DNA from: a phage
Direction: 5' to 3' (one strand)
Length of the DNA stretch: 64,000 nt
NCBI GenBank assembly: GCA_022901335.1
Contig: GCA_022901335.1_3641.1
Position numbers and translations under genes: made by a program. Positions 47,588-54,124 of the stretch are shown one piece after another. Each line of letters starts with the position of its first letter. The stretch's first letter is position 1. The notes beneath the pieces are model-generated. The model saw only the letters and a list, made by a program, of their open reading frames with translations. It was not told the origin of the DNA and searched no databases.

Positions 47588-48251
47588 CTGGAGCAAGTAT
47601 TTCACCTATAGCGACGGCAAACTGTTCTGGGCGTATACCGCAAAAGCCGGAAGGGGTAGGATCATACATTACGCAGGTGAGGAGGCCACAGGCACAGATA
47701 AAGATGGCTATAGAGTAATAAATGTGTCAGGTGTTGGAAGTGTTCGTAGGCACAGAATAATTTGGGAGATGCATTACGGAGAGATACCTGAAGGTCTTGT
47801 TGTTCGGCACAAGAACGACATAGCAGGGGACGACAGGATAGAGAACCTAATCCTGGGGACACAAGGTGATAATGCACGAGACATGATCTACAGTGACAAG
47901 CTAAACATTAACAATACCTCAGGGTATCGTGGCGTGCGCTATCATAGAGGTATAAAAAGATGGACTGCATCTGCTGGAGACATATACTTAGGGTGTTTTA
48001 AGACAAAAGAGGATGCAATTGCATGCAGAAAGTTATGGGAGAAAGGAAAATTCGTCCCGCAAGAATTAGATGTTAGAAACACTAGCGGTGTAACAGGGGT
48101 GTTCTATGTGCCGAGCTCTGGAAGGTGGAGAGTCCGAGTGCAAAGCGGCAAAAAGAGAAAGAGCTATGGCACTTACAACACTTTAGAAGAAGCAAAAGCT
48201 GTAAGGGATAAGGTGATGAAAGAGATTGAGGAGTTTAAAGATGGGGAATAA
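47577..48251 (+). CDS. HNH homing endonuclease with two AP2 DNA-binding domains
   Basis: HNH_3 motif HRIIWEMHYGEIPEGLVVRHKNDIAGDDRIENLILGTQGDN; AP2-like SGYRGVRYH...W and SGVTGVFY...GRWRVRV...YGTYNTLEEA. Confidence 0.7.
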   Translation: MVVDWSKYFTYSDGKLFWAYTAKAGRGRIIHYAGEEATGTDKDGYRVINVSGVGSVRRHRIIWEMHYGEIPEGLVVRHKNDIAGDDRIENLILGTQGDNARDMIYSDKLNINNTSGYRGVRYHRGIKRWTASAGDIYLGCFKTKEDAIACRKLWEKGKFVPQELDVRNTSGVTGVFYVPSSGRWRVRVQSGKKRKSYGTYNTLEEAKAVRDKVMKEIEEFKDGE

Positions 48252-50319
48252 GTTTATACCCTCTGCATATAGCCGCTATGGAGAACCTAACCCAGTTGCA
48301 ACAAGATACAAAAGCGGAGGTAGTATGAAACGAGACTATCGCGATGAAAAAGAGGTTGAAACTGTAGAGACCGTTTTAGAAAATACTAAAATTGTCCCTG
48401 TCCCACAACAAAATATCGGTCTGATGGCTGCACAATATTTTGGTGTGCGATCAGCATTGTCCCAAGAGGACGGTGTGACAGTAACTGCAACATATTTCCC
48501 ATATTACGACCGCTACGGAAATCTATCTGGCTTTAAAAAGCGTGATTGGTCTAAGCCAAAAGAGCAGAAAGGGCACTGGTCTGTAGTGGGCATCGTAAAG
48601 GCCAACTCCCAGATGTTTGGTCAAAAGCTGTGTGCATCTTCCAACAACCGTAAGCAGATTAACGTTTGTGAGGGAGAAGGTGATGTTATTGCAGCATGGC
48701 AGGCTGCATATCAGATACAAGTAAAAGGGATTCTCACCAACGCTAAAGCCCCGGCAAAGGTGAAGCAGTGGGCTAAAGAGGTCCAGGACGGGATCGACGC
48801 AGTTATCAACGGTGGTGATCTGGCAGGAAAACCCTGCCTACCTTTTGTTGGAATTAACTGTGGATGTGCAAACGCAGTAGATACTTTTGCAAACAATGAG
48901 AAGTTTATCCGTAGCTATGGAACAGTTGTGCTGGCAATGGATAACGATGCAGCTAACGAGGTAGAGAAGCAAAAACACGTCATTAAAGGTGTTGAGGCTA
49001 CGCACAATATCGCAGCATTTTTGATGGCTGATAACGTTTACCACGTAGAGTACCCTGGTGAAGTAAACGATCCTGACGGTGTAAAAGATATCCGTGACAT
49101 GCTAAAGGCTAAAAAGCTGGAAGATATTGTCAACATGTTCCGTCACCCAGTCAAATATGTGCCCGATGCTGTATCTGATTTAGAAGACTTCTCCATTGAA
49201 TCTCTTCGTAAGAAGACTTCTAATGGCGTAGATATCAGCGCGGAGTTCCCTAAATTGCAGAAGATGCTGAAAGGACTCCACAAAGGCACCTTGATGATGC
49301 TGACAGGCCCATCTGGCGGTGGTAAAACAACTGTAGCCAAGAAACTAGAACACTGCATTGCAAAATACTTGATGGATCCGACATGCCCTAAAGCCGATGA
49401 TTATGAAGAGGATGATCGCCTGTGTCTGATTCACCTTGAAGAGGACCCTGAGGAAGCAATTAACTCTCTATACGCCAACCAGTTGGGGTTTGATGTTAAA
49501 GAGTTTGTTGAAGACCCTAGTCAGTTCCTGACTGATCAGGAGCATGCTGAGATTCACCAATCTTGGGCCAAGGCTGGAAAAATCAAAGTGTTCAAGCATT
49601 TTGGGTCTATTCCTGTAGATGAGTTGATCACTAAGCTTAAACAAATGGTGTGTCTGTATCACTGCCGTTACATTGTGCTGGATCACCTGTCCATGGTAAT
49701 TTCAGGGCTTAATGTTAAGGATGAGCGCAAAGAACTTGACATGGCTATGACGCAACTAGCCGCGTTCTGCAAGCAGTTTAATGTATTTATCTTGGTGATC
49801 GCTCACCTGAAACGCATAGAGATTGTGCCTCCAAAGGACAAGGATGGGAATCCGTTACCTTTCTGGTATCCTGTACGAAAAGAGAACCTTCGGGGTAGTG
49901 CCGGATTGGAGCAACTTAGCTGGGTAGTTGTTGGGGTGGAGGCAGAAGAGATGGTGGATCGTTCCCGTGGACGTGTCCGACTGGTAGGTCTTAAAAACCG
50001 CCCAGCAAAAACGTTAGGCATTGCGGATACCTTAGTTATGGATCCCCACACAGGTAAGTTCCATGATGCCAGCAACTGGTACTGGGACAAAGAAATGCAG
50101 ATGTTCACAGACGGCGAAGGTGGGGAGGTTGTTTGGAGACCTCAAGCTATGTTTGAGGATCAAGGGCACGCAGTTGTAGAAACACCTGTAGGTAGGGTTG
50201 TGGCTGATAAGGTTGTAACTCCTACTGTTAACCCTGTTGACACACAAGAAGATCTCCCGTATGATGATCCGTCCTCTGACCATGTTCCCGGTTTTGAGGA
50301 TGATGAAACACCTTTTTAA
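48241..50319 (+). CDS. primase-helicase (Toprim primase + DnaB/T7 gp4-like helicase)
   Basis: ATG 48241 after RBS GAGG; Toprim CEGEGD and LAMDNDAANE; Walker A GPSGGGKTT; Walker B-like IVLDHL. Confidence 0.75.
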   Translation: MGNKFIPSAYSRYGEPNPVATRYKSGGSMKRDYRDEKEVETVETVLENTKIVPVPQQNIGLMAAQYFGVRSALSQEDGVTVTATYFPYYDRYGNLSGFKKRDWSKPKEQKGHWSVVGIVKANSQMFGQKLCASSNNRKQINVCEGEGDVIAAWQAAYQIQVKGILTNAKAPAKVKQWAKEVQDGIDAVINGGDLAGKPCLPFVGINCGCANAVDTFANNEKFIRSYGTVVLAMDNDAANEVEKQKHVIKGVEATHNIAAFLMADNVYHVEYPGEVNDPDGVKDIRDMLKAKKLEDIVNMFRHPVKYVPDAVSDLEDFSIESLRKKTSNGVDISAEFPKLQKMLKGLHKGTLMMLTGPSGGGKTTVAKKLEHCIAKYLMDPTCPKADDYEEDDRLCLIHLEEDPEEAINSLYANQLGFDVKEFVEDPSQFLTDQEHAEIHQSWAKAGKIKVFKHFGSIPVDELITKLKQMVCLYHCRYIVLDHLSMVISGLNVKDERKELDMAMTQLAAFCKQFNVFILVIAHLKRIEIVPPKDKDGNPLPFWYPVRKENLRGSAGLEQLSWVVVGVEAEEMVDRSRGRVRLVGLKNRPAKTLGIADTLVMDPHTGKFHDASNWYWDKEMQMFTDGEGGEVVWRPQAMFEDQGHAVVETPVGRVVADKVVTPTVNPVDTQEDLPYDDPSSDHVPGFEDDETPF

Positions 50320-50377: not shown

Positions 50378-53300
50378 ATGAGCATGTGGTCTTTCGATTT
50401 TGAGTCATCCGGTTTGCTGGAAGACCCAGATCTTTATTATCACTGCGGCCTGTTTAAAGAGTTGAATAAGAACCGTTTTATGCTGTTCCTTCCTCTGAAT
50501 GACCGCACACACTACTCCGAGGAGGATATAGAGAAGGCTAAGAACTTTATTCTGGCAAAGAAAACTCTTTATAAGGATTTTGAAGTTCGCATAGCAGATT
50601 TTTCAGAGTTGGAAGGTTGGCTTACAGGCAATTCTGACTGGTCACCCACAGCTTTGAACTGCCACAACTGCTACAGCTACGACTTTATGCTGATGGAGAG
50701 ATTGTCCGGTATTCATTTTGATATGTTCCGTGATCCTAAGTGCATGGGGACTATCAACGACCACCAAGTTAATCTGTTTGATACGTTGGCGATGAGCCGA
50801 ATCTTGTGGCCTGATCGCCCTTTACCAAAAGGTTGTCCGGACTCTGTATTCAACCCGGTTACTAAGAAAATGCAGCCTGTTGGTCCTCACGGCCTTATGG
50901 CATGGGGCTACGCCCTTGGTAACCAGAAAGTTCAAATTGATGACTGGCGCGATCTTCCGTTGTGGAAGTATGTGGATCGTGTATTCGAGGACGTTATCAT
51001 CCAGGAGCTGCTCTGGAAAGAGCTGGTAGCGGAATCAAAAGGTGTATTCTACGGCAAATCTGACATGCAGAACTTTATGTACGATCCAGCCAAAGAGAAG
51101 CCGAAAGGGTTCAAGAAGATCACCTGGAAGAACGCATTACGTCGAGGAATGCTGCAGCACTTCCTGATGGAGCTGCAGGCCCGTCAGGGTGTATACTTCG
51201 ACATAGATGGGGCTATTGCTTTACGTGACCGTTGCGATGCGTGGATGAAAGAAATCGCTGATCGTGTTGAACCACAACTGCCTTTAAAAGAGCTGTCAAT
51301 GTCTCAGCGGCCCAAGTTCCCTGAAAAGCCGTTTAACCAAGACGGGACAATCTCTAATAATGGTTGGAAATGGTTAAAAGATAAGCTTGGCTATCCTGTA
51401 GACATGAGTGCTTTAGAGTTCAAAGCCCCGCCTAAGCGAGCATTTACCTCTACAGGAGATGTCAGTAAGATGGGGATAAAATGGTGTGAAGAGATGGGCT
51501 GCAAAGACCCCGATAAGATGGCTGATTTCTTGAGAGGCTATATTAAGGGCACCTCCACACCACAACCTTTACCTAAAGAGCTAATGGATCAGGCAATAAG
51601 TGATCTACAGCAGAAGCGAATGCCGGACTGCAAGATACCTATGAAAATCAGCAACCAGGACGACATTAAGCGATACCTGATCAGTGCTGGTTGGCTTCCA
51701 ACAATGTGGAGAACTAAGGATGTAACTAAAGACAGCAAGAAGAAAGCTCTACCTGATGCAGATGTTGATGCACGAGTATATGCATATATGGACGAGCTTT
51801 TAGAGTCAGAGTATTGTGACCTGATTATCAACTTCTGGAACAAAACTGATGCTAAGTTCCAGACAACCGTGCACAAGTTCCGAAGCTTTCCTAACTCCGA
51901 AAGGATTAAAAAGGAAGTATTCGGGAAAATACGTAGAAAAGCTAGGGCACTTATTACTTCTCCGCAACTGAAAGATACGTTTGGACACCTATGCCCTAAT
52001 CTTGAAAAATTGAACGGAGAGATGGCTAAAGATATCGTCTTGTGGTTATCATTGCGAAACCGCAGATCGGTCCTTGATCCAATCAAGGAGGATAAGGTTG
52101 ATACTGGTCTTCTTAATCACCCACGTTTGAAGATTGACCATAAGCTTCCTGCTAAAAGTTCTGGATTAACAAACACTTCCCGACAGAAACACAGTATTTG
52201 TGCAAACATGCCTAAACCATCTCCTAAAGTGGTTATGGGTAAAGAGATGCGTAGTCTGTGGGGTGTTCCTCCAGGATACTTTGAGATCGGTATTGACGGG
52301 TCCAACTTAGAGCAGCTTATCGGGGCTTGGGGTGCCTTTGAGTTCGACAACGGCCTGTATTACGATGTTGTAAGTAATGGCGATGCACACTGTTATTCAG
52401 GAGATACACAAATTCTCACGGAGAAAGGGTGGGTGAGGTTTGAAGATCTTGATCCGGGAACACAAGTGTTCCAGTACGATCACAGCACCTCGTCAATGAA
52501 CCTTGTTACTCCATTAAATTACGTTAAGCGTAGTTATTATGGGGATATGTATCATTTCCACAACAGTAGTGTGGATTTTATGGTTACAGATCAACACCGG
52601 ATGCTGACTGTGGATCACAGAAGCAATAAATTGTTTGAAGATTTGGCAAAAGACCTGAAAGCAGGTAAAGGGTCTAATTCAGGAAGAAGGTTTATCCATG
52701 CGGCAGAGTTTTATGGGAATACAGCCTTATCTCCTGCCCAGGTTAATTTGCTTATTGCTATTCACGATGATGGGCACTTGCATACAAATAAGGACGGCAG
52801 CATCGTGTGCAGGATTCAGGTCGGAAAGGGAAGAAAAGTTGCAACGCTTTTAGATACTTTTTCTGCTCTAAGCCTTAGTTATGTAGAGCAGAGCGGGAAA
52901 ACCACAAAAGGAGGCTTACTGGCGAGAAGGTTCCAATTCCACGTTCCGTCCTGGGTATTTGAGTTTTTGGACAGCAATAAGGATTTCACCTACAACCTGA
53001 TGAACCTTGATAAAGAATCTAAAAACCTGTTTATAGCTTCTTTATCTAACTGGGACGGGTGGGTATCTTCCGAAGGTGGAAAGGTTGCTTACTACTCTCA
53101 GGCCGAGTGCAGGAAGAAATCTGTAGAGGTGGTGTCTGCGCTGGCTACTCAGTGTGGTTTACGGAATAATACGGTGGCGATTCACAAAAAAGGTCGTGCC
53201 GTGCAGCACAGAATCACAATTGGTAGCAAACAAAGAGCAGGGTTGCTGACACTATCTAAAGAGTCTGTCGAGGTGAGCGGTTCTTTGGTTTATTGCGTTA

Positions 53301-54124
53301 CCGTCCCTTCTGGAGCAATCATTGTGAGAAGGAATGGTAAAGTGGCAGTGTGCGGTAACTGTAATAACGCCAAAGCTTACTCTTCTGTAGCAGGCAAGGA
53401 GATTTCCCGTAACGACGGTAAACCTATCACGTATGGGGTTATGTACGGGGCACAAAAAGATAAAGTTGCAGATATGCTGGACATCTCTCCAGAGTTGGGA
53501 CAAAGGGTAATCGATGCGCTTTGGGATGCCAACCCTGGTCTTAAGGGCCGTAAAGAGGATCTGGAGAAATTCTGGGAAGCAACGGGTAAGAAGTTTATCT
53601 ACTCTTTTGATGGTCATGCCATCTGGACCCGATCTAAACACTCTTTACTTAATGCATACCAACAGAATGGTGGTGCATCGCTGTGTGACTTGGTTGGGAT
53701 ACTTATGCACCACCAAATGGTGAAGCGTGGGTGGTACGATGAAGGTGTTCGTCGTATTATCTATTACCATGACGAATATCAGCTTCAAGTACCTGACACA
53801 CCGAAGTATAAGACTGTGTACACCTTCGACACAATTGAAGAATTGGAAGCATTTAAGGCAGAGCAGGAGGCCAAACTTCATGTGTTCGACGGTCATAAGT
53901 ACAAAAAGGCACGCAAGGATGAAAACGGAAACGAAGTGGTTGACAGAGACGGAAACACGGTGTACGATCCTATCCTGAACGATGACGGAAAGCTTGAACT
54001 TATCTGGAGTCCTGTGGGCGAAATGGTGGTACATTGCTTCTGGCAAGCTTCTAAAATGATGGGAGTCCCGTTCCAGATCACAGGTGAATACTTGTGTGGT
54101 CGTAATTGGGGTGATTGTCACTAA
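50378..54124 (+). CDS. family A (T7-like) DNA polymerase with intein insertion
   Basis: Exo I FDFESSGL; motif A IGIDGSNLEQL; motif B RNDGKPITYGVMYG; motif C YYHDEYQLQV; about 323 aa inserted between A and B. Confidence 0.85.
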   Translation: MSMWSFDFESSGLLEDPDLYYHCGLFKELNKNRFMLFLPLNDRTHYSEEDIEKAKNFILAKKTLYKDFEVRIADFSELEGWLTGNSDWSPTALNCHNCYSYDFMLMERLSGIHFDMFRDPKCMGTINDHQVNLFDTLAMSRILWPDRPLPKGCPDSVFNPVTKKMQPVGPHGLMAWGYALGNQKVQIDDWRDLPLWKYVDRVFEDVIIQELLWKELVAESKGVFYGKSDMQNFMYDPAKEKPKGFKKITWKNALRRGMLQHFLMELQARQGVYFDIDGAIALRDRCDAWMKEIADRVEPQLPLKELSMSQRPKFPEKPFNQDGTISNNGWKWLKDKLGYPVDMSALEFKAPPKRAFTSTGDVSKMGIKWCEEMGCKDPDKMADFLRGYIKGTSTPQPLPKELMDQAISDLQQKRMPDCKIPMKISNQDDIKRYLISAGWLPTMWRTKDVTKDSKKKALPDADVDARVYAYMDELLESEYCDLIINFWNKTDAKFQTTVHKFRSFPNSERIKKEVFGKIRRKARALITSPQLKDTFGHLCPNLEKLNGEMAKDIVLWLSLRNRRSVLDPIKEDKVDTGLLNHPRLKIDHKLPAKSSGLTNTSRQKHSICANMPKPSPKVVMGKEMRSLWGVPPGYFEIGIDGSNLEQLIGAWGAFEFDNGLYYDVVSNGDAHCYSGDTQILTEKGWVRFEDLDPGTQVFQYDHSTSSMNLVTPLNYVKRSYYGDMYHFHNSSVDFMVTDQHRMLTVDHRSNKLFEDLAKDLKAGKGSNSGRRFIHAAEFYGNTALSPAQVNLLIAIHDDGHLHTNKDGSIVCRIQVGKGRKVATLLDTFSALSLSYVEQSGKTTKGGLLARRFQFHVPSWVFEFLDSNKDFTYNLMNLDKESKNLFIASLSNWDGWVSSEGGKVAYYSQAECRKKSVEVVSALATQCGLRNNTVAIHKKGRAVQHRITIGSKQRAGLLTLSKESVEVSGSLVYCVTVPSGAIIVRRNGKVAVCGNCNNAKAYSSVAGKEISRNDGKPITYGVMYGAQKDKVADMLDISPELGQRVIDALWDANPGLKGRKEDLEKFWEATGKKFIYSFDGHAIWTRSKHSLLNAYQQNGGASLCDLVGILMHHQMVKRGWYDEGVRRIIYYHDEYQLQVPDTPKYKTVYTFDTIEELEAFKAEQEAKLHVFDGHKYKKARKDENGNEVVDRDGNTVYDPILNDDGKLELIWSPVGEMVVHCFWQASKMMGVPFQITGEYLCGRNWGDCH
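52391..53359 (+). mobile_element. intein with LAGLIDADG homing-endonuclease domain inside the DNA polymerase gene
   Basis: block A CYSGDTQILTEKGWV after extein GDAH; block B TDQH; LAGLIDADG-like LLIAIHDDGHL and FIASLSNWDGW; ends VAVCGN before +1 Cys. Confidence 0.65.

Follow-up and report, generated by a model that had tools for sequence, protein, structure and literature searches.

A LAGLIDADG-containing intein of a large phage family in the T7-like DNA polymerase of a Vequintavirus coliphage

The window, that is, the whole stretch of 64,000 nucleotides (nt) of phage DNA analysed here (NCBI GenBank assembly GCA_022901335.1, contig GCA_022901335.1_3641.1; one strand, 5' to 3'), comes from a Vequintavirus (rV5-like) phage of Escherichia coli. 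It encodes a T7-like family A DNA polymerase whose open reading frame (ORF) contains a long in-frame insert. A first-pass annotation, made from the letters and their translations, had read this insert as a LAGLIDADG intein of about 323 amino acids (aa) at 52391-53359. The intein reading is borne out by the sporadic presence of the insert, its exact absence in orthologues, its homologues in unrelated host proteins, and its Hint and LAGLIDADG domains. The element is a conventional endonuclease-containing intein of a known and very large phage family. The locus is organised as follows, with positions given on the window.

50378..54124, plus strand: ORF of the DNA polymerase precursor, T7-like family A with the intein, 1248 aa plus stop in one uninterrupted frame
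50378..52390, plus strand: N-extein, 671 aa, last residues ..NGDAH, delimited by the DrSchubert, T7 and PHROG alignments
52295..52297, plus strand: motif A Asp D640 (T7 D475), in the N-extein
52391..53359, plus strand: intein, 323 aa, from Cys1 to Gly322-Asn323, recognised by presence/absence, homologues in unrelated proteins and fold matches
53360..54124, plus strand: C-extein, 254 aa plus stop, first residues CNNAKAY, delimited by the DrSchubert, T7 and PHROG alignments
53408..53449, plus strand: motif B R688/K692/Y696, in the C-extein
53770|53771, plus strand: codon boundary between His808 and Asp809 of motif C, in the C-extein

The insert is 969 nt long, lies in frame, and corresponds to residues 672-994 of the product. 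Its first codon, at 52391, is TGT (CYSGDTQILTEKGWV), and it closes with GGT AAC (53357..53359; ..VAVCGN), directly followed on its 3' side by another TGT codon (Cys+1) at 53360. The orthologue in phage DrSchubert lacks the intein and measures 2778 nt, versus 3747 nt in the window, a difference of exactly 969. Conceptual splicing of the window protein gives 925 aa that align to the DrSchubert polymerase with zero gaps and 7 substitutions. In the intein-free PHROG profile phrog_8888 (DNA polymerase), the N-extein stops at position 48 and the C-extein begins at position 50. Because the DrSchubert indel, the gap-free spliced alignment and the abutting exteins agree, the boundaries of the insert are exact, and the coordinates first proposed hold to the base. 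The comparison with related phages that lack the insert, suggested at the time as a check, thus shows flanks that join seamlessly. The earlier suspicion of a one-residue error in the boundary was mistaken: it is excluded by an indel of exactly 969 bp and by the invariance of Cys1 and Asn323, and Gly-Asn is the true C-terminus.

The DNA of the ORF is 94-98% identical to Vequintavirus DNA polymerase genes, and its product matches the PHROG DNA polymerase families. Without the insert, the 925-residue polymerase matches T7 gp5 (phmmer, E=7e-16). In this alignment the final His of the N-extein pairs with T7 His506 (NGDAH|C against NGDIH506|T), which sustains the initial T7-like assignment of the extein; the insert comes immediately after this conserved His. 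Motif A (GIDGSNLE, paired with T7 GID475ASGLE) lies upstream of the insert and motif B (SRNDGKPITYG, paired with T7 TR518DNAK522TFIY526G) downstream, so the element does separate motifs A and B, as had been proposed. The T7 residue His506 reportedly contacts the incoming deoxynucleoside triphosphate in the ternary complex of the T7 polymerase.

The intein is covered in 7 of 121 phage records with the polymerase gene; the other records listed show 73% coverage, equivalent to a lack of 969 bp. The seven carriers (Mangalyan, JEP1, 241Ecol014PP, EPFV3-03/2025, YP-6, NHEP1 and VB-EcoM-WM) are phage isolates grown on E. coli or Escherichia fergusonii, and their insert splits motifs A and B. The public records of carrier genomes that we inspected label the gene as DNA polymerase or hypothetical protein and annotate no intein feature. 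An incomplete literature search turned up no earlier account of inteins in the polymerases of Vequintavirus or rV5-like phages, and one may exist elsewhere.

We located the splicing and nuclease motifs in the insert and scored their conservation in a set of 119 full-length family members retrieved by an exhaustive phmmer search. A smaller alignment of 13 sequences comprises the window intein and twelve relatives, with 30 host residues on each side.

52391..52435, plus strand: splicing block A (CYSGDTQILTEKGWV) with the nucleophile Cys1 (Cys in 119/119); Pfam Hint_2 aligns over residues 1-35
52583..52612, plus strand: splicing block B (VTDQHRMLTV), with Thr66 at B:7, His69 at B:10, Arg70 at B:11 and Met71 at B:12
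52748..52780, plus strand: LAGLIDADG motif 1 (LLIAIHDDGHL), residues 120-130, with the putative catalytic Asp127 (Asp in 113/119)
53027..53065, plus strand: LAGLIDADG motif 2 (LFIASLSNWDGWV), residues 213-225, with the putative catalytic Asp222 (Asp in 114/119)
53285..53338, plus strand: splicing block F (LVYCVTVPSGAIIVRRNG), with Cys302 at F:4 (Cys in 119/119) and Pro306 (Pro in 103/119)
53339..53362, plus strand: splicing block G (KVAVCGN) together with the codon of Cys+1 (53360..53362), placed by family conservation

The Hint block A, the TDQH of block B (intein residues 66-69) and the two LAGLIDADG-like motifs, all named in the first-pass annotation, are present and conserved across the family. 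Position B:7 is Thr or Ser in 118 of the 119 full-length members, and B:10 is His in 117. Each LAGLIDADG motif ends with an acidic residue followed by Gly (LLIAIHDD127G and LFIASLSNWD222G), and the Asp of motif 2 is invariant across the 13-sequence alignment. At the C-terminal end, 117/119 members have Gly at G:6 and all 119 have the terminal Asn (G:7). G:5 is Thr in 50 members, Ser in 39 and Cys in 19 (108/119 together), the window intein having Cys321. The residues listed at B:12 are Met, Cys, Val, Ile or Leu, never Trp, and the +1 residue is Cys, Ser or Thr in all 13 aligned members.

The window intein has Gly322 in place of the penultimate His (G:6), a residue that is common but not obligatory in inteins. 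Gly-Asn is the conserved signature of the family and is not peculiar to the window copy. The remark that the element ends "GN rather than the usual HN" is therefore right about the terminus; the ending is atypical only relative to His-Asn, since Gly is the family norm (117/119). Experiments on two relatives show what such an ending can do. In the gp51 intein of mycobacteriophage Bethlehem, which has Gly316 at the penultimate position, splicing is complete, and the G316H change makes the precursor accumulate (PMC5050341). In the AceL NrdHF intein, G145H kills activity and R69A slows it; Arg69, at B:11, touches the C-terminal scissile carbonyl and partly stands in for the missing His (PMC7891396).

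The family is far larger than rapid searches suggest. A word-indexed homologue search with the intein alone gave no match at E<=1e-3, and the same search with the 13-sequence alignment returned six metallophosphoesterase inteins only; exhaustive phmmer was needed to reveal the family. Against 1.84 billion representative sequences, phmmer of the insert gave 7606 matches at E<=1e-3, of which 2095 at E<=1e-10. By tblastn, end-to-end matches (residues 1-323) occur in 392 further phage records at 21-31% identity, and full-length relatives overall are 21-39% identical to the window intein. Their hosts include NAMPT, both subunits (alpha and beta) of ribonucleotide reductase (RNR), PhoH, primase/helicase, nucleotidyltransferase, ThyX (thymidylate synthase), DNA methyltransferases and metallophosphoesterase. 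In the 13-sequence alignment, similarity begins at the invariant Cys and ends at the invariant Gly-Asn, and the host flanks are unrelated. Two unannotated metagenomic polymerases, P0013 and P0015, carry same-site inteins after GDxH, with 42-45% identity between the polymerases and 37-39% between the inteins.

Profiles and structure agree with this family assignment. Pfam Intein_splicing is matched by 3 of 13 relatives at E<=0.01 (best 7.3e-07), LAGLIDADG_3 by 2 of 13 (best 6.5e-11) and LAGLIDADG_1 by one. The profile of the 13-member family matches the AceL NrdHF intein (6ZGQ; E=2.6e-10) and aligns to the endonuclease domains of PI-PkoII and PI-PfuI (E about 1e-3). We modelled the intein with AlphaFold2 from a seven-sequence alignment, obtaining a mean predicted local distance difference test (pLDDT) score of 65, with residues 83-111 below 50. 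The model has confident Hint strands at both ends, in keeping with a Hint fold. Residues 115-278 are modelled as two alpha-beta-beta-alpha-beta-beta-alpha repeats, with a helix (115-127) followed by a beta hairpin at motif 1 and another helix (208-222) at motif 2. A Foldseek search with the model placed PI-SceI first (1.5e-8) and I-DmoI next (template modelling score 0.55-0.60), and also matched the TliVMA intein. A Hint splicing domain and a double-motif LAGLIDADG nuclease are thus supported at the level of both sequence family and fold, with the Hint part spanning residues ~1-110 and ~286-323 and the LAGLIDADG part ~111-285.

The element is very probably a mobile bifunctional intein, i.e. 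a Hint domain with a nested monomeric two-motif LAGLIDADG endonuclease, placed in the fingers region of the polymerase after the equivalent of T7 His506. We infer that it splices because its splicing residues are intact, seven phages carry it in their polymerase, and a homologue splices experimentally. Translation would first give a 1248-aa precursor, presumably inactive because the insert separates motifs A and B. Cys1 would form a thioester with the N-extein, aided by Thr66 and His69 of block B, and the acyl group would then pass to Cys+1. Cyclisation of Asn323 would free the intein without a penultimate His, a role that Arg70 (B:11) probably fills in the manner of Arg69 of AceL NrdHF. A final S-to-N shift would yield the 925-aa polymerase with a Cys at the junction. 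In a co-infection, the LAGLIDADG domain of the excised intein would use Asp127 and Asp222 to cleave polymerase alleles that lack the insert. During repair of the break, the intein would be copied along with some 10 nt of flank on its upstream side and some 48 nt on its downstream side, the latter supplying the needed +1 Cys, a position at which empty alleles have Gln.

The sequence next to the intein is what such copying would leave behind, and one further feature is needed here.

53360..53407, plus strand: intein-linked flank, a probable co-conversion tract, 48 nt encoding CNNAKAYSSVAGKEIS; empty alleles encode QNNAEAYTKVAGREVS

The junction of empty alleles of the DrSchubert or rV5 type reads ..GACGCACAC|CAAAACAATGCTGAG.. 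All five carrier alleles examined have this flank tract, neither of the two aligned empty alleles has it, and it contains six of the seven amino-acid differences between the exteins and the DrSchubert polymerase. On the other side of the intein, in a short tract at 52381..52390, carriers differ from empty alleles at synonymous sites only. The 120-nt spliced junction has no match above 81.7% in any of the 109 intein-free records. These patterns support reading the flank as the expected co-conversion footprint of homing from a diverged donor, which would have brought the +1 Cys in place of the resident Gln.

Substitution rates tell a similar story. Between Mangalyan and NHEP1, the rate of synonymous substitutions (dS) is 0.005 in the intein, and 0.32 and 0.62 in the exteins. 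Between VB-EcoM-WM and the window, dS is 0.50 in the intein and 0.17 in the N-extein. The discordance between intein and extein dS implies that the history of the intein is decoupled from that of the polymerase gene; it indicates at least two intein sub-lineages, with VB-EcoM-WM as the second, and recent lateral spread. The ratio of non-synonymous to synonymous rates (dN/dS) is 0.08-0.12 in the Hint part and in the endonuclease part alike, so both have evolved under purifying selection. Mobility of the intein is thus supported, as far as sequence comparison goes, by the flank tract, by inteins that are nearly identical although their host polymerases have diverged, and by low dN/dS.

Several observations weigh against this interpretation. 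Curated profiles stay below threshold for the window sequence itself (Pfam Hint_2 at 23.6 bits for a cut-off of 28.4, NCBIfam intein_Nterm at 15.3 for 24.5), a Pfam scan of the same sequence for LAGLIDADG domains gave no match, and the moderate confidence of the model lowers the weight of the fold matches. The sampled empty alleles have Gln at +1, which is not a nucleophile, and differ at many places just downstream. Lastly, the invariant Cys at F:4 and the likeness to a proven class 3 intein leave room for another splicing route. The profile check proposed with the first-pass annotation accordingly has a split outcome: the single sequence falls short of the curated profiles, whereas the family profile, the relatives and the fold match inteins. 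The low scores do not refute the intein, because the family-profile, structural and comparative evidence overrides them. They do favour the idea that the insert is something else, i.e. a polymerase subdomain, an in-frame intron, or a homing-endonuclease fusion that is kept in the protein or removed as RNA, as does the group I intron found elsewhere in the same gene of related phages. Such readings are nevertheless effectively refuted. The insert splits motifs A and B, and over 100 close relatives with polymerases otherwise 94-98% identical lack it. Its homologues lie in a dozen unrelated enzymes, always as Cys...Gly-Asn followed by C, S or T, and its fold is Hint plus LAGLIDADG. A conserved polymerase subdomain is ruled out by the absence from 109 relatives, and an intron by the continuous ORF and the lack of any Rfam family anywhere in the window. 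A decayed or domesticated intein, which would splice with an inactive LAGLIDADG nuclease and be inherited vertically or by ordinary recombination, is improbable, though not to the same degree. In its favour, the insert occurs in no more than 7 of about 116 sampled relatives, no sampled empty allele matches the carrier flank, leaving no obvious current target in view, and the window copy has no LAGLIDADG Pfam match. It fits poorly with the retention of both motif Asp residues, with an endonuclease dN/dS (0.08-0.12) equal to that of the splicing part, and with the recent transfer implied by near-identical copies (dS 0.005) in polymerases with dS of 0.3-0.6. Moreover, the endonuclease of the gp51 homologue is toxic in E. 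coli (PMC5050341).

The order of the chemical steps is the other point to weigh. AceL NrdHF has Ala1, was shown experimentally to be class 3, and has an 'MCT' triplet instead of the Trp-Cys-Thr (WCT) triplet, with Met at B:12 (PMC7891396). The window intein shares His69-Arg70-Met71 with it (VTDQHRMLTV versus VSPNHRMIY). Both also fit a C-x-[ST]-V-P pattern in block F, Cys302-Val-Thr-Val-Pro306 in the window and Cys124-Leu-Ser-Val-Pro128 in AceL NrdHF (FHALSVPGK in the chain, with C124A; PMC7891396); this block F/G correspondence is taken from the chain sequence and the numbering of PMC7891396, not from a scored alignment. When the C-terminal 47 residues were compared with PDB by phmmer, only chance matches came up. 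Among the hallmarks of class 3, the window intein has the Cys at F:4; position 1 keeps its nucleophile (Cys1 in 119/119), and Met71 and Cys321 replace the Trp at B:12 and the Thr at G:5 of the WCT triplet. We favour, from these residues, the ordinary class 1 order, assumed because Cys1 is present, with Cys302 probably assisting as Asp usually does at F:4. The rival route, class 3-like or hybrid, in which the N-extein would be loaded onto Cys302 in a branched thioester, directly or after Cys1, before transfer to Cys+1, is unlikely but deserves more credit than a decayed nuclease. It is favoured by the Cys of block F (119/119) and by blocks B, F and G composed as in the class 3 AceL NrdHF. It sits badly with an invariant Cys1 (119/119), unexpected for a residue without a role, with the absence of Trp at B:12, and with the Cys at G:5 of the window copy. 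The 1701 class 3 inteins of PMC7891396 were chosen for having no Cys at the N-terminus, a published ranking of F:4 residues puts Cys second after Asp (PMC4031507), and the homologous gp51 intein is filed as class 1, an assignment that Kelley et al. made from sequence alone, without C1A or block F mutants (PMC5050341). The invariance of both Cys1 and Cys F:4 suggests that both matter. There is a slim chance that the family splices by a relay of the two cysteines or by a redox switch, in which case it would be ancestral to AceL NrdHF. Losing Cys1 would then have been enough to produce the latter, on a path separate from the classical WCT class 3 lineage, and the polymorphic Vequintavirus polymerase intein would be a convenient system, in E. 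coli phages, to study how class 3 evolves from class 1.

The conventional mobile intein that we prefer has its closest characterised counterparts in the gp51 inteins. Those of Bethlehem gp51 (RDF/metallophosphoesterase) and of its orthologues in Pinto (gp51) and Corvo belong to the same family, with 19-23% full-length identity to the window intein and E-values down to 2e-79 against the family profile. They share with it Cys1, the TxxH of block B, the Cys at F:4, the Thr/Cys-Gly-Asn end and a nested two-motif LAGLIDADG domain. They differ in their host, an actinophage metallophosphoesterase instead of a coliphage family A polymerase, and in G:5, which is Thr instead of Cys. AceL NrdHF-1-1 (PDB 6ZGQ) is more distinct: a proven class 3 intein with Ala1, naturally split, in RNR beta, with Thr at G:5 and no endonuclease nested in it (its halves are separated by a GIY-YIG gene), whereas the window intein is contiguous, with Cys1, Cys at G:5 and a LAGLIDADG domain. 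The classical LAGLIDADG inteins PI-SceI (Sce VMA1), PI-PfuI and PI-PkoII have chains of 454-537 aa, much larger than the 323 aa of the window intein, whose endonuclease core is nearer to I-DmoI in size. These three and TliVMA also have Asp at F:4 and His at G:6, in contrast to the Cys and Gly found here. The inteins of P0013 and P0015 occupy the identical position (..GDxH | intein | T/C-xNAxAY..) and end in S-G-N, with Thr at +1 instead of the Cys of the window.

As for annotation, the mature polymerase of carrier phages would be 925 aa long, and not 1248 aa, judging from the predicted splice junctions. In combination, Cys1, Cys F:4 and Gly-Asn are the norm in a large phage family and link it to the only characterised class 3 intein without WCT. 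The question of class 1 versus class 3 can be tested directly, and the basic picture is that of a conventional mobile intein. Close E. coli phages with or without the intein and a group I intron also form a natural system for studying homing, co-conversion and fitness cost in an enzyme that is essential for replication.

The intron in question is an insertion of 276-843 bp in the polymerase gene, at the position equivalent to 53770|53771 of the window (motif C, 'YHDE'). It is present in rV5, JEP1, Mangalyan and VB-EcoM-WM (coordinates 2716-2951 in L002, 3684-3971 in L017, 3684-4536 in L003 and 3684-4535 in L018) and absent from the window, DrSchubert and NHEP1. Rfam identifies it as a group I intron, scoring the short forms at 73.7 and 64.7 bits; scores are weaker for the long forms, which include an annotated HNH endonuclease ORF. 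The polymerase gene is thus hit by two kinds of mobile elements at two catalytic motifs, and all combinations are seen.

A second site for inteins of this family exists in family A polymerases, ..GR(L/F)SSxxPN | intein | CQN(I/W)PR.., and is used by many members. Examples of proteins with this second site or with more than one intein-like stretch are P0026, P0028, P0047, P0052, P0081, P0113, P0118, P0138 and P0151, among others. Several family proteins have two to seven intein-like stretches, and a minority of members end in Gly-Gln instead of Gly-Asn.

Sixteen records labelled 'Campylobacter phage' (MG0656xx, host Campylobacter jejuni) have a polymerase about 97.5% identical to that of E. coli Vequintavirus phages. 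Mislabelled hosts or mixed lysates are the probable reason.

The window holds no further intein copies. The primase/helicase ORF that adjoins the polymerase (48226..50319, plus strand) reads ..PFWYPVRKENLRG|SAGLEQLSWVV.. at 49896|49897. In Avunavirus phage 19-1-2 (L015), the homologous point of the primase/helicase is taken by an intein of this family, 308 aa long (CLNGYVEFLT...VFVTGN|S). Beside the occupied site in the polymerase, the window thus has an empty site for a related intein.

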